From Myxococcales bacterium (lineage in GTDB: Bacteria > Myxococcota_A > Polyangia > Polyangiales > DASUME01): a stretch of DNA of 64,000 nt. The DNA lies in assembly GCA_047601445.1 (NCBI GenBank), contig JASGJH010000001.1:4096001-4160000 (forward strand), written 5' to 3'. Position 1 is the stretch's first letter, and each line of letters opens with the position of its first letter. The notes under the pieces were generated by a model that searched no databases, was not told where the DNA came from, and worked only from the letters and a program-made list of their open reading frames with translations. The position numbers and the translations under genes were made by a program. Below, one piece after another: positions 682 to 21,059 of this stretch.

Positions 682-1296
682 TCAGCGCCACGTGGCGTAG
701 ACCCCGAGCGCGGCCGAGATCACCATGCACAGGGCCGCGATGCGGAAAAAGCCGACCGCGAATGCGCGCGAGCGAAAGCGTCGGGCCAGGGCATCCGCAC
801 TGACTCCGTAGACGGCGAGCCCGAGCAGCTCGGTGCACGTGACGGAGACCATCACGATGGCCGCCTGTGTCATCAGGGGCCGTTTGGGGTCGAGATACGC
901 AGGCAGCATGCCGCCGAAGTAGACCAGCGCATTGGGATTGCCTAGCTGCAGCGCTACCCCGCTGGCGAACAAGCGTGTGCGCGGCGGCGCCTTTTCGCGC
1001 TCCAGCTGCACCGTACCAGCGCGGAACAGGCGCACACCGAGCACGATGATAAAGGCGAGACCTCCCAGCTTGAGCAGCGCGAATAGCAGCGGGAACGCCT
1101 GCGAAAGCGAGGCAGCCCCTGCCACCGCGAGACTCGTCCAGAGCAAGTTCGAGGCGCAGATGCCGAGCGCGGGCAGCATGGCGGGCCAGAAGCCGTAGCG
1201 AATGGAACAGGTCACCACCAACATCACGGCCGGGCCGGGTGTGAGTCCGCCGGCAAGGAAGAGCAACATGAGGGCGATCCACGCCGCGAGTTCCAT
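682..1296 (-). CDS. LysE/RhtB family translocator
   Basis: LTPGP and LGNP motifs, hydrophobic helices; start taken at MELAAW (1296). Confidence 0.85.
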   Translation of the reverse strand: MELAAWIALMLLFLAGGLTPGPAVMLVVTCSIRYGFWPAMLPALGICASNLLWTSLAVAGAASLSQAFPLLFALLKLGGLAFIIVLGVRLFRAGTVQLEREKAPPRTRLFASGVALQLGNPNALVYFGGMLPAYLDPKRPLMTQAAIVMVSVTCTELLGLAVYGVSADALARRFRSRAFAVGFFRIAALCMVISAALGVYATWR

Positions 1297-1460
1297 GGCG
1301 CCAAGGATGACGTGAAACGAAGCGAGAGCACGAGGGCGGCCGCCCAGGCCGGGGTGAGTACGGAATAGCCAGCATCCCTGGGCCCGTTCGCGGAGCCGTG
1401 GTCCAGCACTCCTCCTCCCATCACGGCCCGCTGCCCAAGTACGCCCGGCACAGACGCGGC

Positions 1461-2351
1461 ATGCTCTGCGTGCTCGGCTGCCTGCTCGTTGGCGCCTGCT
1501 CCGATGAGCCCTGCCTCCCCCAGAAGGTCTACGCAGAGGACGACTCCTTTCCCGCCGGAGGAGGGGCGACCACGAAAGAAATGGCGGAACGCCTGGCCCA
1601 AGAACAGGCACTGCCCATCACCTGGGGCGGCGAAGAGCATGGGCTCGATTTCCCACCCTTGCCGATCCAGGGCGACGACGAACTGCTGATGCAAGTTACA
1701 CTCGAGAGTGACCTGACCCAGACGTTCTACGAAGGTCACTCCGACAACGGGGAGGACCATCCGCCTCAGCCCGTCAAAGGCAACTGCTACGCGCACGAAC
1801 CCGAGGCCCACGTGCATGTACACGTGCGAACCCGAAGCGGGATACTCGAGGGGTCGTTCGAAGCGAAGCTCGTCGTGGCGACTGAGCTGGAGCAGATGCT
1901 CTTTTTCGAGCGCACCGGACTGGAAACACCCGACGCGCTAGCGAACTACGCTGCCGCGCTCGGCTTCGACCGTCATCAGGTTCACCTGGGCCTGGCTCTC
2001 TACTACGACTTTCGAGGAAGACTTTCGTACGCTCGCGGGTTCCTCGTCATCGATGCCGAGAACGATCCGAGTCGCGACGTCTTCTTTGGTGCGTGCGGAG
2101 ATCAGCCTGGATTGGGTTGGGATGCGGACGCAGGCCTGCAACCCGACCCGCTCGATTGTCCGCCGATCCTGGCCTCGTGCATGAACCCCAAGGCGAGCGG
2201 GCTCGACAGCTGGGGCTCCTTCCTTGCCTGCCTCAACAAGCCTAATTGCGTGACGTGCCCAACTTCGTCGCCCGTGGACGGGGATCCTCAAAAGGCGGTC
2301 TTTGCCGCGTTCGATGGGCCTTGCCGCTGTACTCAGCTGGACATGCCGTGA
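1461..2351 (+). CDS. Hypothetical lipoprotein
   Basis: Lipobox-like LLVGAC, Cys-rich C-terminus; start uncertain (ORF opens at 1398). Confidence 0.6.
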   Translation: MLCVLGCLLVGACSDEPCLPQKVYAEDDSFPAGGGATTKEMAERLAQEQALPITWGGEEHGLDFPPLPIQGDDELLMQVTLESDLTQTFYEGHSDNGEDHPPQPVKGNCYAHEPEAHVHVHVRTRSGILEGSFEAKLVVATELEQMLFFERTGLETPDALANYAAALGFDRHQVHLGLALYYDFRGRLSYARGFLVIDAENDPSRDVFFGACGDQPGLGWDADAGLQPDPLDCPPILASCMNPKASGLDSWGSFLACLNKPNCVTCPTSSPVDGDPQKAVFAAFDGPCRCTQLDMP

Positions 2352-2353
2352 GG

Positions 2354-3007
2354 CTACGAGAGGGGCGCCAGTTCCGAGACGCTCTCGCCCCGAGACTTCC
2401 TGCTTCGCCTCCGTAGCGCGTCGGCGCCGCTCCATGCACAGACACCGTGGGAGCTAGTGGAGGGAGTCGCACCACTGTCCCCCGTACCCGAATCCGAGCC
2501 GTCGCCGATGCTGATGCACACTGCTTGGTCGCGCATGCCTGCATCGTCCTGCTCGTCGGCGCAGCCACAAAACACCTTGGCCGCATACTCGCGATCGAGC
2601 TCTCGAGTGTCGACGTAAATGTCGGCCGGATCCTCGGCCAAGTAGTGGCACAGTGGCGTCGTAGTGTCCCTCGTCTCGGCCCAAGCGCACGTGCCGCTCC
2701 GCGAACTCGGCGCAGAGCTCGCAACGGTTACTTCCCTGAAGGTCCTTGAGCTTCGCTAGATCGTACTCGGTCATGAGCCCGCACCAATCGGCCGCGTGCG
2801 CCCGATGGTAGGCTCGGGCGATCCAGGTCGAACGATCGCGTTCAAGCGACCCTGCTCCGCCCTCCTCAGACACGCGAGAGTCCGTGCTTCGACCACCGCG
2901 TGTGTCGCCAACAACCACCAAGGTTGATCTCGGCCGCGACAGAGGCTCGCGGAGCGCTGCGCTTCAGCGCATCGAGCACGCGCAAAGGAAACACCGACAT
3001 CTTGCAC
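2354..3007 (-). pseudogene. Frameshifted remnant of an unknown gene
   Basis: Protein-like segments in three successive minus frames (HAVVEARTLACL..GRLNAI / TEYDLAKL..HYDATVPLL / AEDPADIYVD..KVFCGC); a paralogous segment occurs at 12640-12818. Confidence 0.45.
2833..2904. repeat. Imperfect direct repeat, copy 1 (copy 2 at 12748-12818)
   Basis: agagtccgtgcttcgaccaccgcgtgtg (2877-2904) vs agagtgcgtgcttcgaccaccgcgtgtg (12791-12818), 27/28 identical; shared gcgttcaagcg upstream. Confidence 0.85.
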
Positions 3008-3156
3008 TCACCCCTCGCTTGCGATTCGCGCTGCACTCAGAGTTCGAACGCGCACAAGCGGGTTAACCTCCGCACTCGCAGAGAAGATGCGTGATAGGAG
3101 ATGCTTGTACGACGGAGCTCTCCCCCGAGTGTCCGTCTGCAGAGAGGAGGTCTCTC

Positions 3157-3180
3157 ATGAAGTACGACCACGTTGGTTGA
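3157..3180 (+). CDS. Putative biarylitide-type micro precursor peptide MKYDHVG
   Basis: AGGAGG (3145-3150), 6-nt spacer, ATG AAG TAC GAC CAC GTT GGT TGA; MxYxH motif upstream of a BytO/RufO-like P450. Confidence 0.75.
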   Translation: MKYDHVG

Positions 3181-3226
3181 TCGTAGCCAATCCTCCATTT
3201 CTTGGTTTCAACAAGGAGCAATCAAA

Positions 3227-3403
3227 ATGAAGTACAGCAATCAAAGCGGTGCTGTGACGAGCGAAGAGGATCTCTTGCTTTCGGATGAGGAGCTCGGCAG
3301 CGTGCATGGTGGACTCTCGACTCCCCCCAGGATTCCGATCCCGCCGCACTTTCCGCCGATCATTCGCCCACCGGTGACCTTCAACCCCGGCTTCTTCGCA
3401 TGA
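3227..3403 (+). CDS. Double-glycine-leader RiPP/bacteriocin precursor with Pro-rich core
   Basis: AAGGAG RBS at 3213-3218; leader ...LSDEELGSVHGG (LSxxELxxxxGG type); core LSTPPRIPIPPHFPPIIRPPVTFNPGFFA. Confidence 0.8.
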   Translation: MKYSNQSGAVTSEEDLLLSDEELGSVHGGLSTPPRIPIPPHFPPIIRPPVTFNPGFFA

Positions 3404-3407
3404 GTCG

Positions 3408-3452
3408 GTGCAGGGGCGAGTTTCGGCTCGCGAGCGAAATTCGTCCCTGCGC
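3408..3452 (+). terminator. Long stem-loop between the precursor genes and the P450 (attenuator or mRNA stabiliser)
   Basis: gcaggggcgagtttcg (3410-3425) pairs with cgaaattcgtccctgc (3435-3450) with two G-U pairs; no U-tract. Confidence 0.6.
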
Positions 3453-3507
3453 TGCTCCCAACGCGGTCGTCGCGAATATGCCTACGAGAAGAGAGGAGAT
3501 TGAGCCG

Positions 3508-4716
3508 ATGCCCCCCGATCCTGTCTACAACCCGTTGGACGCAGACACCCTGGAGAACCCGTTTCCGATCTATGACTATCTGCGATCCAACGCGCCGGTT
3601 TATTGGCACGAGCAGATGCAGTCATGGGTACTCACCCGATACGCGGACTGCCGGAACGTACTCCTGGACCACAAGCTCTTCGCACGCGACGAACGGCGTG
3701 TGGGTGAGTCGATCCCAGACGATCGCCTGAGCGTGCAACAGCTGGATCCCCCGGAAGTCATCCCTTTACGCCGCTTGTTCTTTCAGGCGTTCAAGGCGGT
3801 CGACCTCGAGCAGATTGCAAGGCGCGCACGCGGCCAGATCAGGGGGCTGCTCGATGCCCATGGCAAGAGGCCGATCTTCGATCTCATGGCAGACGTCGCT
3901 TCACCCGTGGCGGAGTCGCTGACTTGCGAATTCTTCGGTTCACCCACCCCACCGGCGCCGGGAAAGTTCATGCAGATTGCCCATGGCATCGCTCTCGGAA
4001 TGGATGCGGGGCTCGAACCCTGTCAGAGGGGCGCCGGGCGGGCCGTCAGCGTCGAGCTCGACCGCATGGTGCGCGACTGGTCGGAGGACCCCATTCCGGG
4101 AAGTTTCATGGCTGAGGTCAAAGACAAGATCCTCCCACGGAAATACCCGGACACGTTGATCTACCGCACCGTCGACGCCATGGTGAACGCATCGTACTCC
4201 ACGATTTACGCGTCCATTGGAAACGCAGCGCTCACCCTGTTTCAGCATCCAGAGATCCGCGCCGCCTTCACTCCGCACAACCTGGTCAGCGGATGCGACG
4301 AGATCCTGCGCTTCGACAGCCCCGCACATGCAACGAGCCGTGTCGCCACCGAGCGCACCACCATCGGCGGCACGGTGATCGAGCGTGGACAGGTGGTCAT
4401 CACGTTGTTCGCCGCTGCGAATCGAGACCCCGACGGTTTTGAACGCCCCAACGATCTCGTTCTCGACCGCCGTCACAATCATCACCTGGGCTTCGGCTGG
4501 GGTTCGCACCAGTGCCTTGGCATCGGCCTGGCGAACGTCGCCCTGCACGAGTTCGTGTCTGCCGCCCTGGCGCTGCCCGCGTTGCGCTCCCTGGGCAAGC
4601 CGAAGCGCTTTCGAACGGCCACTCTGCGCTGGCTGCAAAACCTGCCCGTAACCGCCTCGCCACAGTCGTCACCGGAAATGGAGGAGCAACGTCATGGCAC
4701 AACTGAACACGCATGA
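3508..4716 (+). CDS. Cytochrome P450, biarylitide BytO/RufO-like peptide-modifying family
   Basis: FGWGSHQCLG heme motif, EILR (ExxR); PVYWHE..SWVLTRYADC, LSVQQLDPP and MDAGLEP resemble BytO/RufO; RBS GAGGAG at 3493-3498. Confidence 0.9.
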   Translation: MPPDPVYNPLDADTLENPFPIYDYLRSNAPVYWHEQMQSWVLTRYADCRNVLLDHKLFARDERRVGESIPDDRLSVQQLDPPEVIPLRRLFFQAFKAVDLEQIARRARGQIRGLLDAHGKRPIFDLMADVASPVAESLTCEFFGSPTPPAPGKFMQIAHGIALGMDAGLEPCQRGAGRAVSVELDRMVRDWSEDPIPGSFMAEVKDKILPRKYPDTLIYRTVDAMVNASYSTIYASIGNAALTLFQHPEIRAAFTPHNLVSGCDEILRFDSPAHATSRVATERTTIGGTVIERGQVVITLFAAANRDPDGFERPNDLVLDRRHNHHLGFGWGSHQCLGIGLANVALHEFVSAALALPALRSLGKPKRFRTATLRWLQNLPVTASPQSSPEMEEQRHGTTEHA

Positions 4717-5830
4717 TGAATGGTCGCGAATCAGGGAAGTCATCGTCGGCAGCGCTGCCAACTACACTTCTCATGACCGAGAGCTCTCGTTCGACCTGTT
4801 CTTCCACGAAAACCTCTTCCGCTCGGACTGGGCCTACCCGCGCCTCAAGAGCGCGTGTCCCGTGCGCGATCGGGCCTGGGAGATCAAGCAGCGGTACGTC
4901 GAAGAGCTCAATGAAGACGTGGAAGGCCTCGTCGAGGTCCTGCGCTCTCTCGGCATCACCGTGCACAGGCCGATGCCGCTGCCGCCCAACACCCCCTCAA
5001 TCAAGGGCTTCGGCTGGGAAGCGATGCCCGTTCCTGCGCTCAACGTCCGCGACAACACGCTGATCCTCGGCAACGAGATCATCGAGACCCCGCCGGCCAT
5101 CCGCTCACGCTACCTCGAAACGCGCCTGCTTGCTCCCGCCTTCAAGCACTACCACGACGCAGGCGCTCGCTGGACGACGATGCCGCGTCCCCTCCTCACC
5201 GACCGCTCGTTCGATCTCTCCTACGCGCGCGACACCGAGACCAGCTTGGGGGGACCGACCGAGCCAATCGAGGATCCGCAAGCGTCGCCGTATGACGTGG
5301 GCTTCGAGATGATGTTCGACGGGGCTCAGTGCCTACGCCTTGGCCGCGACCTGGTGATGAACATCGCGAACGCCAACCACGCGCTCGCAGTTGACTGGCT
5401 CGAGCGTCATCTGGAGGGCCGCTACCGCATCCACCGTGCCTTCCGCATGAGTGACAACCACATCGACTCGATGATCTTGGCCTTGCGCCCCGGCGTCTTC
5501 CTTGCGCGTCACGCAGGCATCCGTGAGCACCTTCCGGAGTGCTTCAAGCGCTGGGAGTTCATCGTTCCTCCGGTGCCGGACGTCTTCCCCACCTACGAGG
5601 ACGCAGACCTCGTATTGACCAGCCCATACATCGACCTCAACGTACTCTCCATCAGCCCTACGACATTGCTGGCCAACGCGGCCTGCGTCGATCTGATCAG
5701 AACCCTCGAGCACCGGGGCTTCGAGGTGATCCCCGTTCGGCACCGTCACCGGCGCCTCTTCGGAGGTGGCTTTCATTGCTTCACCTTGGACACCGTCCGC
5801 GATGGCGGACTCGAGGACTACAGCGCCTAG
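4694..5830 (+). CDS. Amidinotransferase (glycine/inosamine amidinotransferase family)
   Basis: N-terminal NTHDEW..REVIVG, then RD, FDGA, HID, and C-terminal GGGFHCFT with catalytic Cys. Confidence 0.9.
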   Translation: MAQLNTHDEWSRIREVIVGSAANYTSHDRELSFDLFFHENLFRSDWAYPRLKSACPVRDRAWEIKQRYVEELNEDVEGLVEVLRSLGITVHRPMPLPPNTPSIKGFGWEAMPVPALNVRDNTLILGNEIIETPPAIRSRYLETRLLAPAFKHYHDAGARWTTMPRPLLTDRSFDLSYARDTETSLGGPTEPIEDPQASPYDVGFEMMFDGAQCLRLGRDLVMNIANANHALAVDWLERHLEGRYRIHRAFRMSDNHIDSMILALRPGVFLARHAGIREHLPECFKRWEFIVPPVPDVFPTYEDADLVLTSPYIDLNVLSISPTTLLANAACVDLIRTLEHRGFEVIPVRHRHRRLFGGGFHCFTLDTVRDGGLEDYSA

Positions 5831-5851: not shown

Positions 5852-7162
5852 GTGCGCATCCTGATTGGAAATCACATCGACGACTCACTGCTCTGGCAGA
5901 AGGATCAAAGGGCATTTAGTCAGCGCATCTTGTGGTTTGCGCAGGACGGCGACATCGTGATCCTCTCGTGCGAGCCGGACCCCTCTTTTCTCGAGTACGT
6001 CACGTCGCTTGCGGGGGTCGGACGCGACACCCTCGAGTTTCTCGTCGTGCCCCCGGGCGGCCACGGAACACGGCTATTCGATCCCAATTCACTGCTCGAT
6101 CCCGACTTCGTGGCCGAGGTGAAACGGCGCATCGGCGACGTGTCTGATGTCTTTGCGCTGTGGCCCTCCGCCCAGGTCGCCGAGTTTGCCGAACTGCTCG
6201 GGATCCGAGAGAAGCTACCGGGGGCCAGCTTTTTCGCTCAACAAGGCGACGAGCTCGCGAACAACAAAGGAAACTTCCGTGCCTTTGCCGCGGCCCTCGG
6301 CGTACCCGTCGCCGAGGGGGCAGTTTGCCGAACCAAGGAGCACGCAGAGCGAGTCATCGCGCGGCTCCTGCGGACCGGGCCAGTCATGGTCAAACAGGTT
6401 CACAACGGGGCCGGCAACGGCAACGAAGTTCTCGTCTGCGACGACGAGTTGGCCACTGACCATGCCGGCAACAATCGTCGACAGCGAATCGAACCTGGAT
6501 TTTTCGAGGTTCGCGACTACCTCGAAGCGCGCTGGAATTGGGCATCCGTCGGCGGGCGATTCGCCGTGGTGGTCGAGCGCTTCGTGCCAGGGGCTCGCAC
6601 CATATACGCCGAATTCGAGGCCAGAGACGATGGACTGGCGCACACCGCAACCGGATCACTGGGATATGAGCACGGCCGGCTCGTCGAAGAGGTTACGCCG
6701 CTGCGAGGCGTCACCGATGCGGTGCTCGCGCGACTCGTACACCTTGGCGGCCGCCTCGCCGAGACCTACCGGGCGTTTGGCTACCGCGGGTTCATGAGCG
6801 CTGACGCCGTCGTTGACCAATCCGGCAACCTGTTCTTCACCGAAATGAACGCACGTGTGGGCGCTTCTCTCCACCTCTACGAAGGCATCGGAAAGCGGGT
6901 CGTCGATCAGTTTCGTGTTCCTGAGCGGTCACTGATACAGCTCGTGACGCCCAAGCATTGGAAGGTACCAGGCTTCGACGCATTTTCGCGCGTCACTCGC
7001 GAACTCGGCGTCGCCTTCGACCCACTGACTCGGAAAGGAGTGATGGCGGCGATGCCCTTCGCTGGCGAGCCCTGCGCGGGGGGCCTCCTGTTTTGTATAG
7101 CCTACGAGACGGAGCGAGAGCACCACGCCATCGTGGCCCGGCTGACAGAGCGGTTCGGCTGA
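5852..7162 (+). CDS. Pgm1/KtmD-like ATP-grasp peptide ligase (preATP-grasp + ATP-grasp)
   Basis: ILIGN, QRILWFAQDGD, NNKGNFRA, GAGNGNE, GFMSADAVV, FTEMNARVG; GGAGG RBS before the GTG start. Confidence 0.8.
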   Translation: MRILIGNHIDDSLLWQKDQRAFSQRILWFAQDGDIVILSCEPDPSFLEYVTSLAGVGRDTLEFLVVPPGGHGTRLFDPNSLLDPDFVAEVKRRIGDVSDVFALWPSAQVAEFAELLGIREKLPGASFFAQQGDELANNKGNFRAFAAALGVPVAEGAVCRTKEHAERVIARLLRTGPVMVKQVHNGAGNGNEVLVCDDELATDHAGNNRRQRIEPGFFEVRDYLEARWNWASVGGRFAVVVERFVPGARTIYAEFEARDDGLAHTATGSLGYEHGRLVEEVTPLRGVTDAVLARLVHLGGRLAETYRAFGYRGFMSADAVVDQSGNLFFTEMNARVGASLHLYEGIGKRVVDQFRVPERSLIQLVTPKHWKVPGFDAFSRVTRELGVAFDPLTRKGVMAAMPFAGEPCAGGLLFCIAYETEREHHAIVARLTERFG

Positions 7163-7186
7163 CCCGCCCTTCGCCCGTTCAGCGCG

Positions 7187-10100
7187 TCATGGCGCACTGG
7201 CTTCCGCGGCTAGCGCTGGCGCCGCTTCGTTGAGACGGGACACCCGCCGCTGGAGGCTCGCCATCAAGTCCGTGCATTGCTCTTGATCGACCGCCTCGAC
7301 TACTGCAACGCCAATGCAGGTGGTCGAGCTCTCACGCATGTCGGCCATCGTCTGGCCCACCGGCACGGTCAGCGTGGCCTCCACGACGCCAGGAAGAGCG
7401 CGGATGTCCTCGCATCCAACACGATTGATCCGACCGGCCGACGCGGGGAGAGTCGTTACTCCGAAGACCTTATTCGGCTCACACGGTCGCCGCGGGATCG
7501 CGTCGCCCGTGATCGAGAGCGCTCCGGCCGCCCATAGGTCGACCCCGACCGCGCGCTCAATCATGCTCGAGATGTTGTTGCCAGCTACCCGCGCGGCCAG
7601 CTCGCCCGCAACGAAATCGAACGTACCCGGTCGAGCGAAGACCTCGAAGTGAAACACCCCGGTGACGTGCCCCAAGGCGTCGAGGGCCCGTTGGGTGAAC
7701 GTGCCCGCGGCTTGGTAGAGCTGCGGATGGCGGGACGGCGGGAAGGAAATGCTGGCGTGCTGTTTGCCGTTCTTGATCTCGAGGATAGGGGTCACGTACC
7801 TGGACGCATGGAACGTGTGCAGCTGGCCTTGCAGTACGACCCCGTCGAAGTGCCACTCATCGCCGGCGACAAACTCCTCGACCATCAGCCGGCGCAAATT
7901 CGGGTAATTCGCCACCGTGGTAGATACCGCGCTGACGAGCGCTTCGTCGTCCGATACGAACTGCACGTGACGCGTACCGTACCCGGCGACCGGCTTCAGC
8001 ACGAAGGGAGGACGCAGACCGGCGGTTCGTACCGACGCGAGCACAATGTCGGGGCTGGCACATGCATCGGGCACCACGACGAATCTGGCGGTGGGTATCC
8101 CAGCCTCGTGCCATGCGGCTTTTTGCACCGGCTTGTCGCGACAACGCAGAGCTACCTCGGGGTCGAGCCCACGGATGCCCAGGAGTCGTGCCAGGATGGC
8201 GCTCGAAACGACCCCCGTCTCGCAATTCGAGACCACGGCCCCGATCGGACGTGCGAGCGCACCCACCTGATGCAGCGCCGACCATAGGGACTCGACAGAG
8301 GTAAGCGTGTCGATGGCGCAAAAGTGACGGGCCCGTGGGCGCAGCGCCGAAACCCAGGGCTCTTGCCAGGCTTCGTACAGAAGGGTCACCTCGTGACCGG
8401 CCTCGACGAGGGCATCGAACGCTTCCCGTTTTGCTCTCACCAGCACTACGTGCATCGCTCTGCTCTCCTTCCGGTAGGCAGCTCTACTCTTCGATGTTTG
8501 GCGATTTGGAGCGGGCTCCGAGCGTGTCCCATGGGCAACAGAGGGAGCCCAATCACAACCTCTCCCGCATTTGAGCGAAGGCGGATTCGAAGCGTTCACG
8601 AGGTCGGATCCAATCGGCACTCGGGCGGTGAAGCCCTTCTCCAGGCGCTCGCATCTTACGTGAGTTGCTCTCGTCGTAGACGAGCCGGGTCGTCCAACGC
8701 TGACCGCGAGCTCCCCGCCCCGTTCCAGTGACAATCTTTGGCCGAAGGCCGACACCCCGGAGAACTCGTGAGGGACAGCCACATCGATCGCGTAGCCTTG
8801 GCCCGGCTCAAATAGATACCGGATGCGGAGACCCGATGAGCGGTCGTCCCAGGAACGGAGCACGCACAGCTCGGCCGAGTCCTCAAAGTGTCGGCGATTG
8901 GAGGCGATCAAGCCCTCGATTCGGTCGGAGATCAGCGCGCGATCCCCCGACTCGGCGTACTGGCGGAGCAGCGGAACGTGCCGTCGCAACAGCTGCGGGA
9001 GATACAACTCGGGTCGCTTCTCGTTGCGGATGACAGCCAGTCGAAAGGTCAGCTCCTGAAGCTCAGCGCGCTCGATTTCAGAGTTCGTCGCCCGCGCATC
9101 GAGCTCCTCGCGATACCGAGCGTACGCATCGATCAAGTCCCGAATCCGCTCGTCCTGAGCGCCTCCGAGCAGAACCTGGTTCAGCGCTTCTCGTCCTCTG
9201 GGCCACAGGCGAGCCAGCAAGCAGAGGATGCCACCGAGATCGTAGGTCCCCGTCCAGCGCGGCATGCGCCTCTCGATGAGAATCGGGGATGTGCCATCGA
9301 AAGCAACCTGATGAAGGTGCAAACCAAGCTGACCGTAGAACTTGCTCGGAGTGCACCGGGCCAGCCAGAATTGGGGAAACCCGCACAAGCGCAGGAGGCC
9401 TCGGATGACAGCCTGGGCATACTTTCGCTTCACCCGTTGCTCGAGCTCCTCGCGCTCGGGGATGGCAGCAGCGAGTCGAGGCGACAGCCCGAGGGCGGTG
9501 CAGTGCGCAAGATTTCTCAGCATGTCGCTGAGATTGGCAGGCGAGTCGGAACGGAACGGCGAGCCGCGCACCGCAATGGTGGAACCATGGTTTGGTTGAG
9601 TCGATTGCGTCTCGAAGTCGAGCAGTCGCCCACTGGTCTCGACATTCGACGACGACAGCGCTCCGTGGGGTGCCCGCCGCACGAGTAGCGCAGCTTGCTG
9701 TTCGGCAAGGCGATCGGCGAACTGCAGGAACCCCTCGCGTAGCGCCTCCTCGCAGGAGGCGGGCTCCGGAGTGTTCCGCGGCAAGGCGGCCATGATGCAT
9801 TGCTGCAGGGACCGGAGACTATCGGCGTCCTGACGAGAATAGGGGTTGAGCATGAAATGCGCCGGGCGCACCGGGAAAGGGCGTAGGAGCAGCGCGCGGC
9901 GCTTGCTGCGGCCATCCGGCAAGAGCATTGATGTCCCACAGTCCAGAATGGCGAGCACGCGGTTGGCGCCATGCGGCGCTTCGGCCTGGTTGAGCTCACC
10001 CCAGACTGCCTCGCGCATGGCATCTCCCAAGAACAGACCTCCATGCCGATGATCGTGCGGACTTCCGTGGTCGGCCAGCGACGTCGTCCCGATGCCTTTG

Positions 10101-10522
10101 ATCTGCAGCGATCCGAGCGCGGCTGCGCGGCCGCTCCCACGGTTGGCCCCGATGCCCTCACCACCGTATCGATCGGCATAAAAAGCCCGGGCTTCACCGA
10201 TGAACATGCCAGGCTCATCCTGGTCGTCCGGGATCCGATACGCGAAAGCTTCGAGGAATATGTGCTCGAGCTCAGGTGTGATGCCGTCGCTAGGCAACCC
10301 GAGCTCGAGGTCGCGCAACAGAGACCAGTTCACCCACAGCAGCCTCGCGTCGCGCATTCTTCGGGCGAGCACCGGCACGAACGCCTCCGGTGGTGGTGCC
10401 ACCGGCGCGTTGTCCATGAGCCGAGCGAGCCCGGCTCGGAGCCTGTCGTAGGGGGAAACGGACACGCCAATAGAGGCATGAAGCGATGTTGCGTCGCGAG
10501 CAATCCTCATCACCCCGCACAA
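7187..10522 (-). CDS. MchC/MceJ-like (SelO-fold) domain fused in frame to an ATP-grasp ligase; the ATP-grasp half may also start independently at 8455
   Basis: ADRYGGEGIG.N.GSGR, QIKGIG, REAVWGE, RRALLLR..VRPAHF, HGALSSSN, LDFET; then CRDK, LKPVAGYGT, VEEFVAGDE, FHFEVF, ELAAR. Confidence 0.75.
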   Translation of the reverse strand: MCGVMRIARDATSLHASIGVSVSPYDRLRAGLARLMDNAPVAPPPEAFVPVLARRMRDARLLWVNWSLLRDLELGLPSDGITPELEHIFLEAFAYRIPDDQDEPGMFIGEARAFYADRYGGEGIGANRGSGRAAALGSLQIKGIGTTSLADHGSPHDHRHGGLFLGDAMREAVWGELNQAEAPHGANRVLAILDCGTSMLLPDGRSKRRALLLRPFPVRPAHFMLNPYSRQDADSLRSLQQCIMAALPRNTPEPASCEEALREGFLQFADRLAEQQAALLVRRAPHGALSSSNVETSGRLLDFETQSTQPNHGSTIAVRGSPFRSDSPANLSDMLRNLAHCTALGLSPRLAAAIPEREELEQRVKRKYAQAVIRGLLRLCGFPQFWLARCTPSKFYGQLGLHLHQVAFDGTSPILIERRMPRWTGTYDLGGILCLLARLWPRGREALNQVLLGGAQDERIRDLIDAYARYREELDARATNSEIERAELQELTFRLAVIRNEKRPELYLPQLLRRHVPLLRQYAESGDRALISDRIEGLIASNRRHFEDSAELCVLRSWDDRSSGLRIRYLFEPGQGYAIDVAVPHEFSGVSAFGQRLSLERGGELAVSVGRPGSSTTRATHVRCERLEKGFTARVPIGSDLVNASNPPSLKCGRGCDWAPSVAHGTRSEPAPNRQTSKSRAAYRKESRAMHVVLVRAKREAFDALVEAGHEVTLLYEAWQEPWVSALRPRARHFCAIDTLTSVESLWSALHQVGALARPIGAVVSNCETGVVSSAILARLLGIRGLDPEVALRCRDKPVQKAAWHEAGIPTARFVVVPDACASPDIVLASVRTAGLRPPFVLKPVAGYGTRHVQFVSDDEALVSAVSTTVANYPNLRRLMVEEFVAGDEWHFDGVVLQGQLHTFHASRYVTPILEIKNGKQHASISFPPSRHPQLYQAAGTFTQRALDALGHVTGVFHFEVFARPGTFDFVAGELAARVAGNNISSMIERAVGVDLWAAGALSITGDAIPRRPCEPNKVFGVTTLPASAGRINRVGCEDIRALPGVVEATLTVPVGQTMADMRESSTTCIGVAVVEAVDQEQCTDLMASLQRRVSRLNEAAPALAAEASAP

Positions 10523-10554
10523 CAGTACCGACGCGAACCTTCAGGCGGCTCTGC

Positions 10555-11514
10555 TCACCCGGTTGCAAAGCGATCGAGCGCGCTCATCAGGGCCAATCGC
10601 TTGCTGTTGCTGCGCAGGTGCCCGGCGTCGTCCACCGCGATGAGCTCCGCCCCCGCCCATGCTCGCGCAAGGGCCCAGGCGGTGTCGATTGGACAACTCA
10701 TGTCTCGTCTTCCGTGGATCACCACCCCGGGGATTCCATCGAGCCGCGCCGCGTTCTGGATCAGAGCGCCTTCTTCCAACCAACCGCCATGCCGAAGGTA
10801 GTGGGTACAAATGCGCACGAAGGCCAGCATGTCCTCGACCGGCATCTCAGAGCTCGAGGCCGCGCCGGCACCAGTCTCGAGTGAGAGCACCGCGTCCTCC
10901 CATTTGCACCACCCCCTGGCGGCCGCCACCCTGACGGCCTCCTCAGGGTGATCCATGCGCTGGGCGTAAGCCTCGATCAGGTCCGCCCCACGCGCGGTGT
11001 TGGGTAAGGGACCTCGGAATTGTTCCCATGCTTCCGGGAAGAAACGAGCAGCCCCTGCGTACAGCCACTCGGCCTCACGACGAGTCCACGTAGTCACATT
11101 GCTGAGCACGAGCTCAGAAACCGACTCGCGATGGCGATGCGCATAGGCCAGCGCGAGCGCGACACCCCACGAGGCGCCGGAGACCAACCAACGCTCGATG
11201 CCGAGGTGACGCCGGAGGGATTCCATGTCCGCGATGAGGTGATCCGTCGTGTTGCATGACATGTCCGTGGCGAGGTCACTGGCGGAGGGGATCGACCTTC
11301 CGCAGCCCCGTTGGTCGAACAGAACCACCCTATACTGCTCCGGGTCGAACGCGCGCGCCATGTTGGGAGCGCAGCCTTGCCCGGGACCGCCGTGCAGCAC
11401 CACAGCGGGCTTTCCGTGGGGTACGCCGAAGACCTGCCACGCGATGCGGTTTTCGGAGCTGACCTCCAGGTGTCCTTCTTGGATGGGTCCTCGCAGCGGA
11501 TACAAGTCGACCAT
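10555..11514 (-). CDS. pip: Proline iminopeptidase (S33 alpha/beta hydrolase)
   Basis: LHGGPG, FDQRGCGRS, GASWG nucleophile, HGRRD, DAGH. Confidence 0.9.
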   Translation of the reverse strand: MVDLYPLRGPIQEGHLEVSSENRIAWQVFGVPHGKPAVVLHGGPGQGCAPNMARAFDPEQYRVVLFDQRGCGRSIPSASDLATDMSCNTTDHLIADMESLRRHLGIERWLVSGASWGVALALAYAHRHRESVSELVLSNVTTWTRREAEWLYAGAARFFPEAWEQFRGPLPNTARGADLIEAYAQRMDHPEEAVRVAAARGWCKWEDAVLSLETGAGAASSSEMPVEDMLAFVRICTHYLRHGGWLEEGALIQNAARLDGIPGVVIHGRRDMSCPIDTAWALARAWAGAELIAVDDAGHLRSNSKRLALMSALDRFATG

Positions 11515-11571
11515 GGAGACCTCGCATTCGTTGACACCGGATTTTCGCCAAACGCAACCGACCCCGACCGT

Positions 11572-12615
11572 CTACCCTGAAGACGGGCCCGTGTCTCGTG
11601 GAGGAACGGCCTGCGCGACGAGCACGTGAACGCCGGAGCGGGTGGTCAACACTCGCTCGATCACGAAGCCGGCTGCAACGAGCAAGGCGCGGTTCTCGTC
11701 GAGCGTGCGATCCCGAGCCCCGAACAACACGAGCATCGTCAGGTCTCGAATCGACGATGGAAGTCCGCCCTCGCGCTCCAGGTCGAGCGAGCGCTCGATG
11801 AGCAAGAGGCGCCCACCTCCCGTGATGGCGCGCCGCACGTTGCCAAGGATTTGCAAGGCCTCTTCGTCGCGCCAGTTGTGAATCACTGCCTTGAGCAAAT
11901 AGAGTTCTGCTCCAGCAGGAACCTCCCGCAACAGGTCGCCGGCGAGCGCTGTGCCTCGCCCGCTCACTCCTCGCTCCTGAAGAGTATGCCTGACTTGTTC
12001 GACCACGGCCGCCTGCTCGACCGCGATTCCTTGCAACTCCGGGTGTCCCTTCAGTACCTCGGCGAGCAGGGTTCCGTCACCCGCTCCCAGGTCGACGACC
12101 AGGCCTCGCTCGGGGAACTCGTACAGGGCTTCGAACTCGTTCCAGAAATGGGAGCTGTTGAAGCGCATCGTGCGCGCGAAGGAACGCGCCAGCTCGGGGG
12201 TTTCGCTCATGTAGGTCCACAGCCCCCGCCCATGCACGTGCTCGAAAGCCGAGCGACCGGTACGCAACGCGTAGCTCAAGCAGGCCCAGGCGTCGTAGTA
12301 TTCGGTTCCAGACATTCGAGCGTGACCATGAAGCAGACCCGCCTCGTGGTGCAGCAGCTTGCAGAGCGCGGTACCGTGAACCAGACCGTCGACGCGCTGT
12401 ACGAGCTCGAGTCCCTCAAGCGCATCCAAGTACCTGCGCAGTTCGTTCGTGCCGATACCGGTCAGCTCCGCGAGAGTGCGTTCGGTCTGCGGCCCCTCGG
12501 CCAGAAAGTCCGGGATGCGGAGCGTCACCGCCGAGGCCACGAGCTGCGTAACGATGTACCCACCCAACAGCTTCCCGAGCCGCTCGCCTTCCGGCCTGGC
12601 TTCGTTCTGGAGCAT
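11572..12615 (-). CDS. SAM-dependent methyltransferase (Methyltransf_2 with dimerisation domain)
   Basis: VDLGAGDG, LKAVIHNW; GAGGAGG RBS before MLQNE. Confidence 0.9.
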   Translation of the reverse strand: MLQNEARPEGERLGKLLGGYIVTQLVASAVTLRIPDFLAEGPQTERTLAELTGIGTNELRRYLDALEGLELVQRVDGLVHGTALCKLLHHEAGLLHGHARMSGTEYYDAWACLSYALRTGRSAFEHVHGRGLWTYMSETPELARSFARTMRFNSSHFWNEFEALYEFPERGLVVDLGAGDGTLLAEVLKGHPELQGIAVEQAAVVEQVRHTLQERGVSGRGTALAGDLLREVPAGAELYLLKAVIHNWRDEEALQILGNVRRAITGGGRLLLIERSLDLEREGGLPSSIRDLTMLVLFGARDRTLDENRALLVAAGFVIERVLTTRSGVHVLVAQAVPPRDTGPSSG

Positions 12616-12747
12616 TCGGAACCTCCTCAACTGCTTGCCTCAAGTCGTACTCGAGTGCGAGGCCCATGGCGACGAGGTTAACCCCGCGTGGCGCAAGATG
12701 ACGGCGGTCCAGCCCGCCCAACCGCCGATGGTCCCTATCCGCCATAG

Positions 12748-12818
12748 CGATGGCGTTCAAGCGCCCCGCCAACGCCCCATGAGACAAGCCAGAGTGCGTG
12801 CTTCGACCACCGCGTGTG
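12748..12818. repeat. Imperfect direct repeat, copy 2
   Basis: Matches 2833-2904; minus strand encodes HAVVEARTLACL then, after a frameshift, GRLNAI. Confidence 0.85.
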
Positions 12819-12855
12819 GGGAAGACGCTTGGCTTCTCTTGCAACGAGGTTGGTG

Positions 12856-13839
12856 ATGAGCGAGCACTTGCTTGGTGCGGCCGCGGCGTGCGGCTGTTTG
12901 GTAATGTGGAATCTGCTGGGTGGCTGCGGATCGGAAGACAGCACGTCTGCACGGAGCGCGGACACGCCGAGCGCGCAGGATGCGGGTGAAGGCGACGACT
13001 CTTCCACGGAGCAAGACGGTGATGAACCGTGGGACGACGCAGACGCATCGAGCGAGGAGCCCGGCCCCGATGCCTCGGACAAGGGCTCGCAACCCCCGCA
13101 AGACTCCGCCCTGTGCCACCTGGCTGGCGAGCAGGTGGCGGTGCTGGGGGACTCCTACGTCGCGCTGGATCCCACCTACGTGAAGTTCGACACCCATCCT
13201 TTCACGCGCAATCTGGAGGCGCTGGCGCGCAGCGCGGGAGCGCTCGGCGAGAGCGAGCAATATCGCCGCCTCGCCGTGAGTGGCGCCTCGATGAACGGGT
13301 TTCCCAATGTTCCTGCGCAGCTCGACGGCGCACTCGAGAGCGATCCGGACCTGAAGCTGATCATCATGGACGGCGGAGGCAACGATGTGCTGGTGAACAA
13401 CCGCCAGTGCCTGGAGCACGCCACGGCCGACGAGCTCCTACGGGACGAAAGTTGTGTGGGCACCGTGGATGATGTGCTCGCCGCAGCTCAAGGAATGTTC
13501 GACAAGGCCAGCGCCGCGGGAGTGGAATCCGTGGTCTATTTCTTCTATCCGCATCTGCCTGGCTACGCGTCCGGCTATCTCAACCTCGCCGGTACCTATC
13601 CGAACGTCATGTTGGACTACGCGTATCCACGCATGCAGGCCTTCTGCACGGGACAGCACGCCTTGCCTTGCACCTTCGTGGACATGCGGCCCGTGTTCGA
13701 CACGGACGGCGACGGCGCGCCCGATCCCGGCATGATCAACGTGGATGGCATCCATCCGACCGAGGCGAGCTCCAAGCTGCTGGCCGCGGAGGTCTGGAAG
13801 GTCATGCGGCGGGAGTGCCTTGCCGTGGAGCGCCCGTGA
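12856..13839 (+). CDS. SGNH/GDSL hydrolase lipoprotein
   Basis: LGDSY, AVSGA, GGGND, DGIHP; lipobox LLGGC and acidic linker. Confidence 0.88.
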   Translation: MSEHLLGAAAACGCLVMWNLLGGCGSEDSTSARSADTPSAQDAGEGDDSSTEQDGDEPWDDADASSEEPGPDASDKGSQPPQDSALCHLAGEQVAVLGDSYVALDPTYVKFDTHPFTRNLEALARSAGALGESEQYRRLAVSGASMNGFPNVPAQLDGALESDPDLKLIIMDGGGNDVLVNNRQCLEHATADELLRDESCVGTVDDVLAAAQGMFDKASAAGVESVVYFFYPHLPGYASGYLNLAGTYPNVMLDYAYPRMQAFCTGQHALPCTFVDMRPVFDTDGDGAPDPGMINVDGIHPTEASSKLLAAEVWKVMRRECLAVERP

Positions 13840-16758: not shown

Positions 16759-18849
16759 ATGTCCGCACGAAGCGCATTGGCTTGGCTCACGCTCTTGGTT
16801 GGTTGTACGGCGGCAGCCCCGCAGAGCGATGTCACCTCAGCCCCATCACCCAGCGCGCCAGGTGACGCGCCCGGGAGTACGCCGACGGGAGAAGCGTCGT
16901 CGAGCTCCGCGCGGGAAGAGGCCCCGAACCCCGACCCGATGTTCGTGGACGCCATTTTCCAGGCCAAGTCCGCGGTGGTCGTGAAGGATGGCCAGATGTT
17001 CGGCGACTGGGAGTGGGTCGAGGTACCTGGTTCCCAGTGTCGGGATGGGTCCACCGCCGGCTACTACATCAAGCGCAACAGTGCGTCCGACAATCTGATG
17101 ATCTTCCTGAACGGCGGCGGCGTCTGCTACGACGACTTCTTCTGCTCCATCAACCCGGCCAACGTGGACCAAAGTCTACCGGGCGAAAACCTGCTCGGCG
17201 CCATCGGCGATATCCTGACAAACAGCGTCGCTCCGGTGCGCCAGGTTCCGCCCGAGGCAGGCATCTTCTTGGATCGTCCCGAGAACCCCGTCGGCAAGTG
17301 GAACATGGTCTACGTGCCCTATTGCACGGGCGATGTGCATGCTGGCACCAAGCGCGACGCGCCCGTGTTCACGGCGTCGTTCGTGGGCAAGCAGCAGTTC
17401 GTGGGCTACGACAACCTGAGCTTGTTCCTGGAAGACTTCGGCGCTGCATTTCAGGGCGCAGAGAAGGTGCTGCTCACCGGATCGAGCGCCGGTGGCTTTG
17501 GCACCCTGCTCAACTTCGACCGCACCCAGCGCTTCTTCTCCGACAGCATGGTGTATGCGGTGAGCGACTCGGGCATCCCCTTCGGCGACGAGTTCCTCGA
17601 GCCGTGTCTGCAGAAGCGCTGGCGCGAGCTCTGGGGCCTCGACGCCGTCTTGCCGCGCGACTGCTCGGGTTGCTTCAACGCCGACGGCGGCGGCCTGGCC
17701 TCGGGACTCGGCCACTACATCTTCAAAGAGAAATACGCAGGCCGCATGTTGGGTGGGGGGATCTCCACCGAGCAGGACGAGATCATCAAGCTCTTCTTCA
17801 GCTCGGGCTTGCGCGAGTGCACCAACAGTGCCCTGCTCGAGACCATCCCACTCTTCCTCGGCTTGACTGGCTATCCTGCAGATCGCTACCCGGGCGGCCT
17901 GCGCGACTTCGTGCAGAACATCGCCGGACTCGACAGTGTGGGCAGCTACATCATGGCCGGCAGCAATCACCAGCACTTGTTCCGCGATCGCTTCTACAGC
18001 TCGAACGGCCTTGGAATCACGCTGGCCCACTGGCTGGCCAAGACCCTGGATGGCGAAGCGGTCCACGCGGGTGCGCTGCTCGATGCGGCGCCCGAGCCCA
18101 CTTTCGGATCCACGGGTCACAACGGTCCACTGAAGGTCGCCAGCTACACCAGCGGCTTCCGCGACGGCCCCGACTTCGCGGACGCGACCATCTGGTACCC
18201 CGATGGCGTGACGGGGCCCCTGGCGAGCGTGGCCGTGGTTCCAGGCTGGGTTTCGAGCCAAGGCGACGTGACCGATTGGGGGCCGTTCTTGGCCTCTCAC
18301 GGTTTTGCCGTGATCACCATCGGCACCAACAGCCCTGCCACGGATCTGCCGGCCGACCGTGAACGCGCGGTCATGGACGCGCTCGAGACGATGCGCGCCG
18401 AGAACAGCCGCTGGTTCGGTCCGCTGCAGAACAAGCTCGACCTGACGCGTCAGGCGGTGATCGGCTGGTCCATGGGAGGCGGCGCGAGCCTGCTGGCGGC
18501 AGCCGATCATCCCGAGCTCAAGGCGGCCGTCTCGCTGTGTGGCTGGAACCCTGGCCATTCCTACAACGACGTGACGGTTCCTTCCCTACTCTTTGCGGGC
18601 ACCCTCGATGCTCTTGCCGGCGGTCAGTCGCAGGGCTTCTACGAGAGCATCCCCAACGCTACGCCGCGCTTGCTCTACGAAGTTCAAGGCGGTGACCACT
18701 GGGTCGCGAATGACCCCGCACACGAAGAGGGACAAATTGGACGCCTCGCGCTGTCGTGGTTGAAGCTCTACGTCGATGGCGACGAGCGCTACCGCAAGTT
18801 CCTGCTCGAAGAGCCCTTCAACGCCGCCGACTTCCGGGTCGACCTGTAG
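16759..18849 (+). CDS. Lipoprotein with pectinacetylesterase-like domain fused to a cutinase/PETase-like alpha/beta hydrolase
   Basis: LLVGC lipobox; CRDGS, FLNGGG.C, VPYCTGDVH, GSSAGG; second domain VVPGW, LASHGF, GWSMGGG, GTLD, GGDH. Confidence 0.85.
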   Translation: MSARSALAWLTLLVGCTAAAPQSDVTSAPSPSAPGDAPGSTPTGEASSSSAREEAPNPDPMFVDAIFQAKSAVVVKDGQMFGDWEWVEVPGSQCRDGSTAGYYIKRNSASDNLMIFLNGGGVCYDDFFCSINPANVDQSLPGENLLGAIGDILTNSVAPVRQVPPEAGIFLDRPENPVGKWNMVYVPYCTGDVHAGTKRDAPVFTASFVGKQQFVGYDNLSLFLEDFGAAFQGAEKVLLTGSSAGGFGTLLNFDRTQRFFSDSMVYAVSDSGIPFGDEFLEPCLQKRWRELWGLDAVLPRDCSGCFNADGGGLASGLGHYIFKEKYAGRMLGGGISTEQDEIIKLFFSSGLRECTNSALLETIPLFLGLTGYPADRYPGGLRDFVQNIAGLDSVGSYIMAGSNHQHLFRDRFYSSNGLGITLAHWLAKTLDGEAVHAGALLDAAPEPTFGSTGHNGPLKVASYTSGFRDGPDFADATIWYPDGVTGPLASVAVVPGWVSSQGDVTDWGPFLASHGFAVITIGTNSPATDLPADRERAVMDALETMRAENSRWFGPLQNKLDLTRQAVIGWSMGGGASLLAAADHPELKAAVSLCGWNPGHSYNDVTVPSLLFAGTLDALAGGQSQGFYESIPNATPRLLYEVQGGDHWVANDPAHEEGQIGRLALSWLKLYVDGDERYRKFLLEEPFNAADFRVDL

Positions 18850-18857
18850 CGCTGACC

Positions 18858-19874
18858 TTACGGGCAGTGATCCACGGGCACCAGGTTGTCCACCGCGAGG
18901 ATGCCGCCCTTGTTGGCATCGGTGCTCGACGGCGCGAGCGAGAGATGAGCGACGTCCGCGGTCGGCACGAAGGTGGCGCAAAAGGTCTGCCACGTGGTCG
19001 TCGGCGTCGGAGACGCCCACAGCAGCTGATCTCGCCCGCAACGCGAGCTTCCGCCCCAGATCTCGAGGTGGTTCGTGCCCGAGACTTCGCCCTGCAGTAG
19101 CGGTGCGGCAACGTCGATCAAGAAGCTGTGGGAAGTGCCCGCTTTGAGCGGCGCGCACAGCGGCTCCGAAGCCCCCTGGGTCCCCACTCCACCGTTGGCC
19201 GAGGTGAGCAAGTAGGTCTTGCCGTCGGTCGGCGCGAGCTGTCCATCCATCCCGGGGTACGGCCGATCGGACCAGATGGTGTTGTTGTCGGTGGGAAAGC
19301 TGCCACAGCTCACCCACGGGCTCGCGCTGGACACCCCGTCGCCGAGCCAGCCTGGCGAGCTGCTTCCCGAAGGATCGCCCTCGATGGATGGATTCGTGAA
19401 ACACACGTTCCCGTCGCCCTTGGTTCCACCATCGGCCTCGCAGTCCAGCACCTCGGCCGTCACCATCGCAGTCGCAGTTTGCTGCTGCTGCGAGAACTCC
19501 TGCGACGAGGCGGGCGCATCCTTCACCGTCACCGAGTAGGCTGTCGTCGCCGTGGGGCAGAGGTGCCGCATGGGATTCGCCGAGCCGTCCTCCCAGGTGA
19601 ATGAGTAAGGTGCCACACCGCCCTTGGCGACCGCGACCACGTCGGCGCAATCTCCTGCGCAGGCGAGCGTGACGATATCGATGGTGACGTGGTCTCGCTC
19701 CACGTGAGCTTTCAGCTTGTCCTCTGGGTCTGCGCCGTCGGGGCCGTCGTCGTCCGCCCCCTGATTGTCATCGGGCGGGCCCCCGGGATCGTCGGTCCGG
19801 CCGACGGTCGCCTGGGTCGCAGAGCAGCCTGCAAGGGCGATGAGCGCCAAGAGAAGAGAGGGCCGGAGGTTCAT
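18858..19874 (-). CDS. Hypothetical lipoprotein (Cys-containing, carbohydrate-binding-like C-terminus)
   Basis: ALAGC lipobox, GGVAPYSFTW. Confidence 0.65.
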   Translation of the reverse strand: MNLRPSLLLALIALAGCSATQATVGRTDDPGGPPDDNQGADDDGPDGADPEDKLKAHVERDHVTIDIVTLACAGDCADVVAVAKGGVAPYSFTWEDGSANPMRHLCPTATTAYSVTVKDAPASSQEFSQQQQTATAMVTAEVLDCEADGGTKGDGNVCFTNPSIEGDPSGSSSPGWLGDGVSSASPWVSCGSFPTDNNTIWSDRPYPGMDGQLAPTDGKTYLLTSANGGVGTQGASEPLCAPLKAGTSHSFLIDVAAPLLQGEVSGTNHLEIWGGSSRCGRDQLLWASPTPTTTWQTFCATFVPTADVAHLSLAPSSTDANKGGILAVDNLVPVDHCP

Positions 19875-19930
19875 GCTCCCTTCATGCGGCGATCCGACCA
19901 GTCCTTGGCCATGGGGAAGGAATTTCTGGC

Positions 19931-20932: not shown

Positions 20933-21059
20933 ATCGCCTCACCTGGTCGTCGCCCCGGCAAGGCAATGCAAAAGCGAAGCCGGAAGAGGTGCAAAACCGT
21001 TCGAGCGCCCGTTGGTGGCTCCCTTCTTGCTGCCGGGTCCTGGCTAGAGGAGGTTCGAC

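Follow-up and report, generated by a model that had tools for sequence, protein, structure and literature searches.

Genes for biarylitide precursors are the shortest genes known and escape annotation, and each verified case improves the rules by which such genes are mined. The P450Blt (8U2M), RufO (8SPC, 8SPP, 9EBY and 9DUJ) and NsRufO (22YX) enzymes are described as acting on ribosomally made pentapeptides of the form M-x-Y-x-H (PMC13651536). In P450Blt, the carboxylate at the C terminus of the substrate's His5 is reported to lie between Arg188 and Arg230, with additional bonds between Tyr3 and Ser239 and between His5 and His234 (PMC12002111). In RufO, both Arg188 and Arg231 are retained, and a Val stands where the alcohol would be (PMC13651536). 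Bioinformatic work published in 2026 described a hybrid cluster type in which a Pgm1 ligase homologue goes with a precursor that has Asp at position 4; 47 such clusters were reported, and no product appears to be given for them (Padva et al. 2026, PMC13417212). Here we describe a candidate relative of these systems in a 64,000-nucleotide stretch of a Myxococcales bacterium genome (contig JASGJH010000001.1, positions 4,096,001 to 4,160,000 of the forward strand), hereafter called the window. The element in question is a 24-nucleotide open reading frame (ORF) with the predicted product MKYDHVG, located upstream of a gene for a cytochrome P450 of the BytO/P450Blt/RufO clade.

We estimate a probability of roughly 0.8 that this ORF is a genuine, translated precursor gene of the bytA type, belonging to a biarylitide subfamily characterized by Asp4, an amidinotransferase, and PGM1- and LAL-type ligases. 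Judged by sequence comparison, the hidden gene is very likely real and belongs to a known family, as a C-terminally extended variant that is accompanied by a matching change in the enzyme. An earlier note on this DNA had proposed a hidden gene of this kind with its own Shine-Dalgarno (SD) sequence, and the positions it gave are exact (AGGAGG at 3145-3150, ORF at 3157-3180). The codons are ATG AAG TAC GAC CAC GTT GGT TGA. The ORF shares its strand with the P450 gene and lies approximately 330 nucleotides upstream of position 3508, where the P450 gene probably starts. Aromatic residues occupy positions 3 and 5 (M-K-Y-D-H), as they do in biarylitide precursors and in the relatives described below. 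The predicted peptide has seven residues, with Val-Gly after His5, and so departs from the five-residue form with a C-terminal His that is typical of biarylitides.

Neither the motif nor the ribosome-binding signal is informative in isolation. The pattern ATG-NNN-TAY-NNN-CAY occurs only at 3157 when both strands of the whole window are searched, yet 0.29 matches are expected per window by chance and at least one was present in 25 of 100 shuffles. The SD hexamer AGGAGG has 39 copies in the window (15 on the plus strand and 24 on the minus strand), and by itself is uninformative. Because motif and SD are both common by chance, the case rests on context and comparison. Arithmetic from the per-window expectation gives approximately 0.001 motif matches in a 500-nucleotide stretch beside the P450 gene. 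What lifts MKYDHVG beyond chance is its position beside the only BytO-type P450 gene of a 9.5-Mb single-contig genome, together with a perfect SD, a stop codon after seven codons, and equivalent ORFs at homologues of the P450.

These equivalent ORFs were found in several sets of genomes. A homologue scan with one genome per species yielded ten Streptomyces loci (L001 to L010), whose P450s are 44-49% identical to that of the window. Eight of the ten (L001 to L008) have a GGAGG sequence, a spacer of ~7 nucleotides and a seven-codon ORF encoding MRYDHCL, 110-150 nucleotides upstream of the P450 gene, and the P450s of these eight loci are the nearest relatives of the window P450. Thus, the conservation that the earlier note had proposed to look for beside close P450 homologues is present, and its reading of the peptide as an extended biarylitide-type precursor agrees with the P450 clade, with MRYDHCL at the closest loci and with MSYDH at more distant ones. 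Locus L010 carries two copies of MSYDH just downstream of the P450 gene. No small ORF was found beside the P450 gene in L009, which has a transposase gene upstream. A metagenome scan added three loci, of which one (L012) has MSYDH downstream of the P450 gene, one (L013) ends 8 nucleotides past the P450 match, and one (L014) is a weak partial match.

A larger sample of 401 Streptomycetaceae genomes gave 34 P450 matches at E <= 1e-70; 30 loci were examined, the other four being without a locus. We counted ORFs of 5 to 10 residues that are preceded by an SD, fit the pattern M-x-aromatic-x-aromatic and lie within 450 nucleotides of the P450 gene. Such an ORF is present in 24 of the 30 loci under a strict SD filter and in 26 under a looser one. 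One further small ORF lies 5 kb from the P450 gene, beside a ligase gene, and in three loci none was found. The predicted peptides are MSYDH (nine loci), MKYWH (six), MRYDY (three) and MSYNH (two), with single cases of MDYSH, MRYNY, MKYCW, MRYAY, MRYIH, MSYDY and MRYDHCL. All but one of the 27 small ORFs in this sample encode five residues; the exception is MRYDHCL, which is the same place as L001. Next to homologous P450 genes, the putative precursor is conserved as M-[KRS]-Y-D-H, with or without two further residues, and its counterparts in related loci likewise have an SD site, of the GGAGG type, before them.

Some of these loci have features of their own. Tandem duplicate precursors, as two MSYDH (L010) or two MSYNH, lie beside the P450 gene in L010 (7259-7355), L036 (1204-1340) and L058. 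In L009, the P450, amidinotransferase, hydrolase and PGM1-like ligase genes are present (5983-13131) with a DDE transposase gene upstream, and the ORF that follows the P450 gene begins M-S-Y-D-S-G-V, perhaps as a decayed or fused bytA. In the MSYDH cluster of L010, a gene for a TauD-family dioxygenase accompanies two genes for LAL-type ATP-grasp proteins (8077-12038), and PGM1 and amidinotransferase genes are not within its flank.

The eight copies of MRYDHCL show a pattern of synonymous variation. Five sense-codon sites vary among them, all at third positions and all synonymous, including sites in the codons for Cys6 and Leu7, and the stop codon alternates between TAG and TGA. In the flanks of these copies, variation affects 17 of 30 sites upstream and 25 of 45 downstream. 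The restriction to synonymous change indicates that Cys6-Leu7 is maintained as amino acids in that lineage.

The small ORF might instead serve in regulation, as an upstream ORF or a leader peptide by which operon expression is tuned, and not encode an enzyme substrate. Its place at the 5' end of the operon would suit such a role, as would a conserved 13-bp GC hairpin that directly follows the MRYDHCL ORF on its 3' side in L001 to L008 (5883-5925 in L001; z -2.9). We nonetheless regard a purely regulatory function as very unlikely. The equivalent ORF is downstream of the P450 gene in L010, L012, L020, L021, L023 and L024, and so has no leader role there, and the conserved residues are Tyr3 and His5, which are described as being held over the haem in solved enzymes (PMC12002111, PMC13651536). 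Moreover, a scan of 2600-3700 of the window revealed no promoter-like or terminator-like site, and the predicted RNA fold of 3140-3230 is no better than that of shuffled sequences (z -0.6); the same scan and fold gave no counterpart of the Streptomyces hairpin. Loci L001 to L008 also have short tandem repeats (ttcac units) in variable number before the P450 start, and the relative amounts of precursor and enzyme transcripts in these loci may be governed by hairpin and repeats.

The P450 itself provides a second line of evidence. Its reading frame is open back to 3400, and the likely start is the ATG at 3508, which we prefer because it has an SD (GGAG) upstream and because homologues align from residue 7 of the resulting protein. 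Starts at 3400, where the ATG overlaps the stop codon of a 58-codon ORF (ATGA, 3400-3403), and at 3478 are less favoured. The best matches in the PDB are NsRufO (22YX, 3.8e-79), RufO (8SPC/9EBY, 1e-67) and P450Blt (8U2M, 1.5e-67). The ten best chains, which include these enzymes, have E-values from 3.8e-79 to 3e-57, and the next P450 is at 1.3e-31. The window enzyme keeps the haem Cys and EXXR motifs as well as the I-helix alcohol (as Thr).

Residues that bind the substrate's C terminus in P450Blt are replaced. In a HMMER alignment, Ser181, Asp223, Asn227 and Thr232 of the window P450 (numbered from 3508) correspond to Arg188, Arg230, His234 and Ser239 of P450Blt; the chain offset of 21 is set both by the I-helix residues and by the haem Cys. 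The two arginines that clamp the carboxylate in biarylitide enzymes are thus Ser and Asp in the window. Among 42 enzymes aligned with MAFFT, the Arg188 column contains Arg in 33, Gly in the eight MRYDHCL enzymes and Ser in the window. The window P450 and these eight enzymes form one clade, with the window enzyme as sister to the rest (FastTree support 0.954). A two-residue C-terminal extension of the precursor therefore appears to co-occur with loss of the carboxylate-clamp Arg, a combination that looks new. The pairing would be mechanistically coherent, because the enzymes that lack the Arg are those whose predicted substrate no longer ends at His5.

The genes around the P450 gene are conserved along with it. 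We compared the window's proteins by tblastn with 25 loci: L001 to L010, L012 and 14 wide Streptomycetaceae stretches of 19 kb. Nine of the 14 wide stretches, comprising all eight with MSYDH and the MSYDY locus, have genes for both the amidinotransferase and the PGM1-like ligase, as do L001 to L009, which matches the Asp-4 cluster type reported from the main text of PMC13417212. Neither gene was found in the wide stretches with MDYSH, MSYNH, MRYDY, MRYNY or no small ORF. The amidinotransferase is 67-77% identical to those of L009 and the nine wide loci, and 27-28% identical to those of the MRYDHCL loci. For the PGM1-like ligase, identity to ligases of the related clusters is 36-50%, and the LAL part of a 1111-residue window protein is 38-52% identical to the product of a stand-alone gene in 14 loci. 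P450, amidinotransferase, PGM1-like ligase and LAL-type ATP-grasp protein are conserved together.

Two suggestions of the earlier note about how these enzymes use the peptide fare less well in this comparison. It had proposed that the C-terminal extension supplies the carboxylate for an ATP-grasp ligase, but all eight wide loci with the unextended MSYDH have the same PGM1-like ligase and amidinotransferase. Lys2, its proposed site of amidination, is an unlikely one, as position 2 is Ser where the amidinotransferase is 67-77% identical and Arg in the MRYDHCL loci. The amine of Tyr3, once freed, is possibly the amidination site, as the same note had offered in second place.

Between the small gene and the P450 gene lies a 58-residue ORF. 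Its leader ends in LSDEELGSVHGG, which fits the double-glycine consensus, L-S-x-x-E-L-x-x-I/V-x-G-G, and no other small ORF of the window or of L001 to L011 matches a loose form of this motif. The stretch of 29 residues that follows the Gly-Gly is rich in proline and includes neither Tyr nor Trp. The ORF has no Pfam or NCBIfam match, a protein-database search returns only the ORF itself, and tblastn found no homologue in the 25 related loci. Its GC content at third codon positions is 0.69, versus 0.73-0.82 in neighbouring genes, and look-alikes in a protein atlas score 0.81-0.84, which is a lead at most. A C39-peptidase transporter gene is not nearby: the two PF03412 frames of the genome are at 4.87 Mb and 8.28 Mb, outside the window (4.096-4.160 Mb). 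Like the heptapeptide, the 58-residue peptide begins M-K-Y. Descent from a duplicated copy of bytA is conceivable, given this shared start and the tandem bytA copies in L010, L036 and L058.

This peptide could be the true substrate of the P450, in which case MKYDHVG would be a chance ORF. Most P450-modified RiPPs (peptides made by ribosomes and modified after translation) other than biarylitides are reported to have long precursors with leader and core (PMC13417212), and the 58-residue ORF is the one nearest to the P450 gene; the ease with which the short motif arises in shuffles points the same way. However, no aromatic Tyr or Trp follows its Gly-Gly, the ORF is an orphan, and it is M-x-Y-D-H ORFs that accompany P450 homologues in other genomes. 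We therefore consider it extremely unlikely that the longer peptide is the substrate and the shorter one an accident.

A different use of the precursor is suggested by RufO, which supplies a building block derived from a ribosomal pentapeptide (PMC13651536) and whose homologue NsRufO is a better PDB match to the window P450 than is P450Blt. By this route, the P450 would modify Tyr3 without forming a ring, or with a ring that is opened later. The peptide would then be hydrolysed, and the modified tyrosine set free in this way would be N-amidinated and serve as the alpha-guanidino acyl donor of the PGM1-like ligase, with another peptide, such as the core of the 58-residue ORF, as acceptor. The known donor of PGM1 is an alpha-guanidino aryl amino acid (PMC8939145), and the window encodes both a hydrolase and a leader-bearing peptide. 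The earlier note had allowed for nitration of the RufO kind. Such nitration is unlikely: the window enzyme retains an I-helix alcohol, Thr, at the position occupied by Val in RufO, and the single-contig genome, which is 98.7% complete, gave no match to nitric oxide (NO) synthase (PF02898), although the same search detected one in 2 of 14 named genomes as a control. The absence of the 58-residue ORF from all 25 related loci also speaks against this route, and the strict conservation of Asp4 and His5 across PGM1-linked clusters would be unexplained if Tyr alone were used. On balance, we find the supply of a building block quite unlikely.

Several observations weigh against the interpretation of MKYDHVG as an extended biarylitide precursor. 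The motif is unremarkable per se, and the closest enzyme in the PDB is one that nitrates, not one that cross-links. The P450 is absent from the 9 genomes of the same genus and 51 of the same order that were searched, and from 400 sampled genomes of the phylum. With no orthologue in the window's own lineage, selection on MKYDHVG is inferred from distant relatives, whose P450s are 46-48% identical. The extensions differ, with VG in the window and CL in Streptomyces, and no shared chemistry is evident. The presence of the 58-residue ORF between the small gene and the P450 gene is unlike every relative examined. The extension and the lost Arg amount to one evolutionary event and not to a statistical association. 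P450BytO of myxarylin is reported to reject a substrate with one extra C-terminal residue, for steric reasons (PMC12951456), although this rejection also fits a link between extension and clamp loss. Finally, the sites joined by the ligase, a carboxylate and an amine, are put forward by analogy only.

If MKYDHVG is the precursor, the P450 probably cross-links Tyr3 to His5 within the heptapeptide (-2 Da), in a pocket re-modelled so that residues 6 and 7 can pass. Met-Lys would then be trimmed off, perhaps by the clustered alpha/beta hydrolase, a step to which we give an even chance; in the case of myxarylin, a serine protease is reported to remove N-terminal residues (PMC12951456). Known systems offer models for what might follow. 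PGM1 joins an alpha-guanidino acid to the N terminus of a ribosomal peptide in pheganomycin (PMC8939145), ketomemicin clusters include a PGM1-type ligase and an amidinotransferase (PMC11943689), and in phevamine synthesis an amidinotransferase makes amidinospermidine, to which two ATP-grasp enzymes add amino acids (PMC6187163). By analogy, and tentatively as to the order, the amidinotransferase would make an N-amidino compound, the PGM1-like ligase would join the carboxylate of this compound to the freed amine of Tyr3, as in pheganomycin, and the LAL-type ligase would add a residue at Asp4 or at the C terminus. Export could be through the LysE-type protein. An alternative logic would place an amidino-amine on Asp4 or on the C terminus; we prefer an N-terminal amidino-acid cap because of the homology to PGM1.

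There are two candidates for the amine partner of the ligase, namely the trimmed heptapeptide and the core of the 58-residue ORF. With the latter, the product might be a hybrid RiPP from two precursors, in which one of the two ATP-grasp ligases attaches a cross-linked, amidino-capped Tyr-Asp-His(-Val-Gly) to the free N terminus of the proline-rich 29-residue core, once this core has been released from the 58-residue peptide. We consider such a hybrid unlikely, but if it exists, it would be a capped proline-rich peptide made from two ribosomal precursors. A predicted complex of the PGM1-like ligase (12-row alignment) with the 58-residue peptide has a score of 0.00 and a mark of 0.32, which speaks neither for nor against binding. 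In a weaker form of the proposal, the heptapeptide would be the first natural BytO-type substrate to be cross-linked at an internal Y-x-H, through loss of the clamp.

Coordinates of the genes and signals discussed here are listed in the table.

Table. Features of the candidate cluster, with positions in the window
Feature	Position	Strand	Evidence and remarks
Shine-Dalgarno AGGAGG	3145..3150	+	6 nt before ATG 3157; spacer TCTCTC 3151-3156; read directly
bytA-like precursor gene (candidate), 7 codons + stop	3157..3180	+	MKYDHVG
58-aa ORF, candidate second precursor	3227..3403	+	SD AAGGAG; leader ending LSDEELGSVHGG; Pro-rich 29-aa C-terminal part
Cytochrome P450, BytO/P450Blt/RufO clade	3508..4716	+	Pfam PF00067 and PDB matches
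Arginine-dependent amidinotransferase	4694..5830	+	PDB StrB1 1bwd 9e-46; AGAT, SxtG, HsvA
PGM1-like ATP-grasp peptide ligase	5852..7162	+	PF18604 Pre-ATP-grasp 2e-24; PGM1 3wvq 2e-78, residues 1-421
1111-aa fusion: N-terminal ~690 aa and LAL-type ATP-grasp C-terminal ~410 aa	7187..10522	-	PF18603, PF13535 at C terminus
Alpha/beta hydrolase (S33 aminopeptidase-type models)	10555..11514	-	PF00561, PF12146
O-methyltransferase	11572..12630	-	PF00891 1e-33
LysE-type exporter	682..1611	-	PF01810 4e-25

The remaining genes of the cluster are less uniformly shared. Homologues of the alpha/beta hydrolase, which we take as a candidate trimming peptidase, are present in three related clusters (L009, L054 and L056) at 43-52% identity. 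A homologue of the O-methyltransferase, 28% identical, adjoins the P450 gene in L051. In place of LysE, the related clusters L001, L009 and L010 have genes for MFS transporters; an export function is possible for the LysE-type protein. The N-terminal ~690 residues of the 1111-residue protein match no Pfam family at E-values up to 10, apart from one chance-level match at 0.026, and tblastn found this domain in none of the 25 related loci. Look-alikes of the domain identified with a language model score 0.96 and belong to clusters with PF02696 (SelO) in 11-14% of their members, so a SelO-like relation is a lead. A scan of the ORFs at 1-30 kb showed no type III polyketide synthase or other arylglycine-donor gene.

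The amidinotransferase is 75-77% identical to those of L049, L051 and L052, whereas the adjacent P450 and ligase are only 45-48% identical to theirs. This difference, together with the absence of the P450 from 60 relatives and 400 phylum-mates, suggests that the cluster was acquired by transfer and has a mosaic history. Downstream, the region from 16759 to 30490 looks unrelated to the cluster. It encodes a PETase-like/pectin acetylesterase fusion, an FGE-sulfatase and a sulfatase, as well as an Hsp70-family protein, a C-type lectin protein and a Laminin_G_3 protein.

If MKYDHVG and MRYDHCL are precursors, the biarylitide family is not confined to precursors of five residues. The Pgm1/Asp-4 hybrid type was known already, and the C-terminal extension by two residues is what looks new. 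Change of tail and clamp together would constitute a simple, testable rule for recognizing P450s that accept an internal Y-x-H, which would be useful in biocatalysis of peptide macrocyclization. The extra parts found in the window, the leader-bearing peptide and the ligase fusion, may point to what the ligases attach. The window also places the Pgm1-linked Asp-4 subfamily in a genome whose searched relatives and phylum-mates have no such P450.

Comparison with known systems shows where this locus agrees with them and where it departs. With the biarylitides (BytA/BytO, including P450Blt and myxarylin), it shares a very short, SD-preceded ORF with Tyr3 and His5 beside a P450 of the same clade, and the P450 shares the haem Cys motif, EXXR and the I-helix alcohol. 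It differs in that the precursor has seven residues instead of five and His5 is not C-terminal, in that Ser, Asp and Asn replace Arg188, Arg230 and His234 of P450Blt, in the 58-residue ORF and ~330 nucleotides that separate the small gene from the P450 gene, and in the addition of an amidinotransferase and two ATP-grasp ligases.

The solved structures closest to the window P450 are those of RufO and NsRufO, which are associated with nitration of the tyrosine in MRYLH for rufomycin and likewise have a ribosomal M-x-Y-x-H substrate, but RufO has Val, Arg188 and Arg231 (PMC13651536) where the window enzyme has Thr, Ser and Asp, and no NO synthase was found in the window's genome. Pheganomycin PGM1, ketomemicin KtmD/KtmE and phevamine HsvABC resemble the window in the pairing of an ATP-grasp ligase with an amidinotransferase, whose genes are adjacent here, and pheganomycin has a ribosomal peptide linked to an amidino acid. 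Unlike these systems, the window has no type III polyketide synthase or arylglycine genes, the donor genes reported in PMC8939145, among the ORFs scanned, and the partner of its ligase would, by analogy, be a mini-peptide modified by a P450.

A literature text search found no relevant paper on MKYDH or MRYDHCL precursors, and one on biarylitides lengthened at the C terminus brought up no paper beyond two of those cited here. The main text of PMC13417212, as distinct from its Table S1 of 277 clusters, makes no mention of precursors with seven residues, of loss of the Arg clamp or of an additional peptide with a leader. The Pgm1-ligase/Asp-4 clusters of that paper share with the window Asp4, a PGM1-like ligase and an amidinotransferase. 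The window differs from them in that its host is outside the sampled Streptomycetaceae, with the P450 absent from all 60 relatives searched, and in that its LAL-type ligase is fused to a 690-residue domain.

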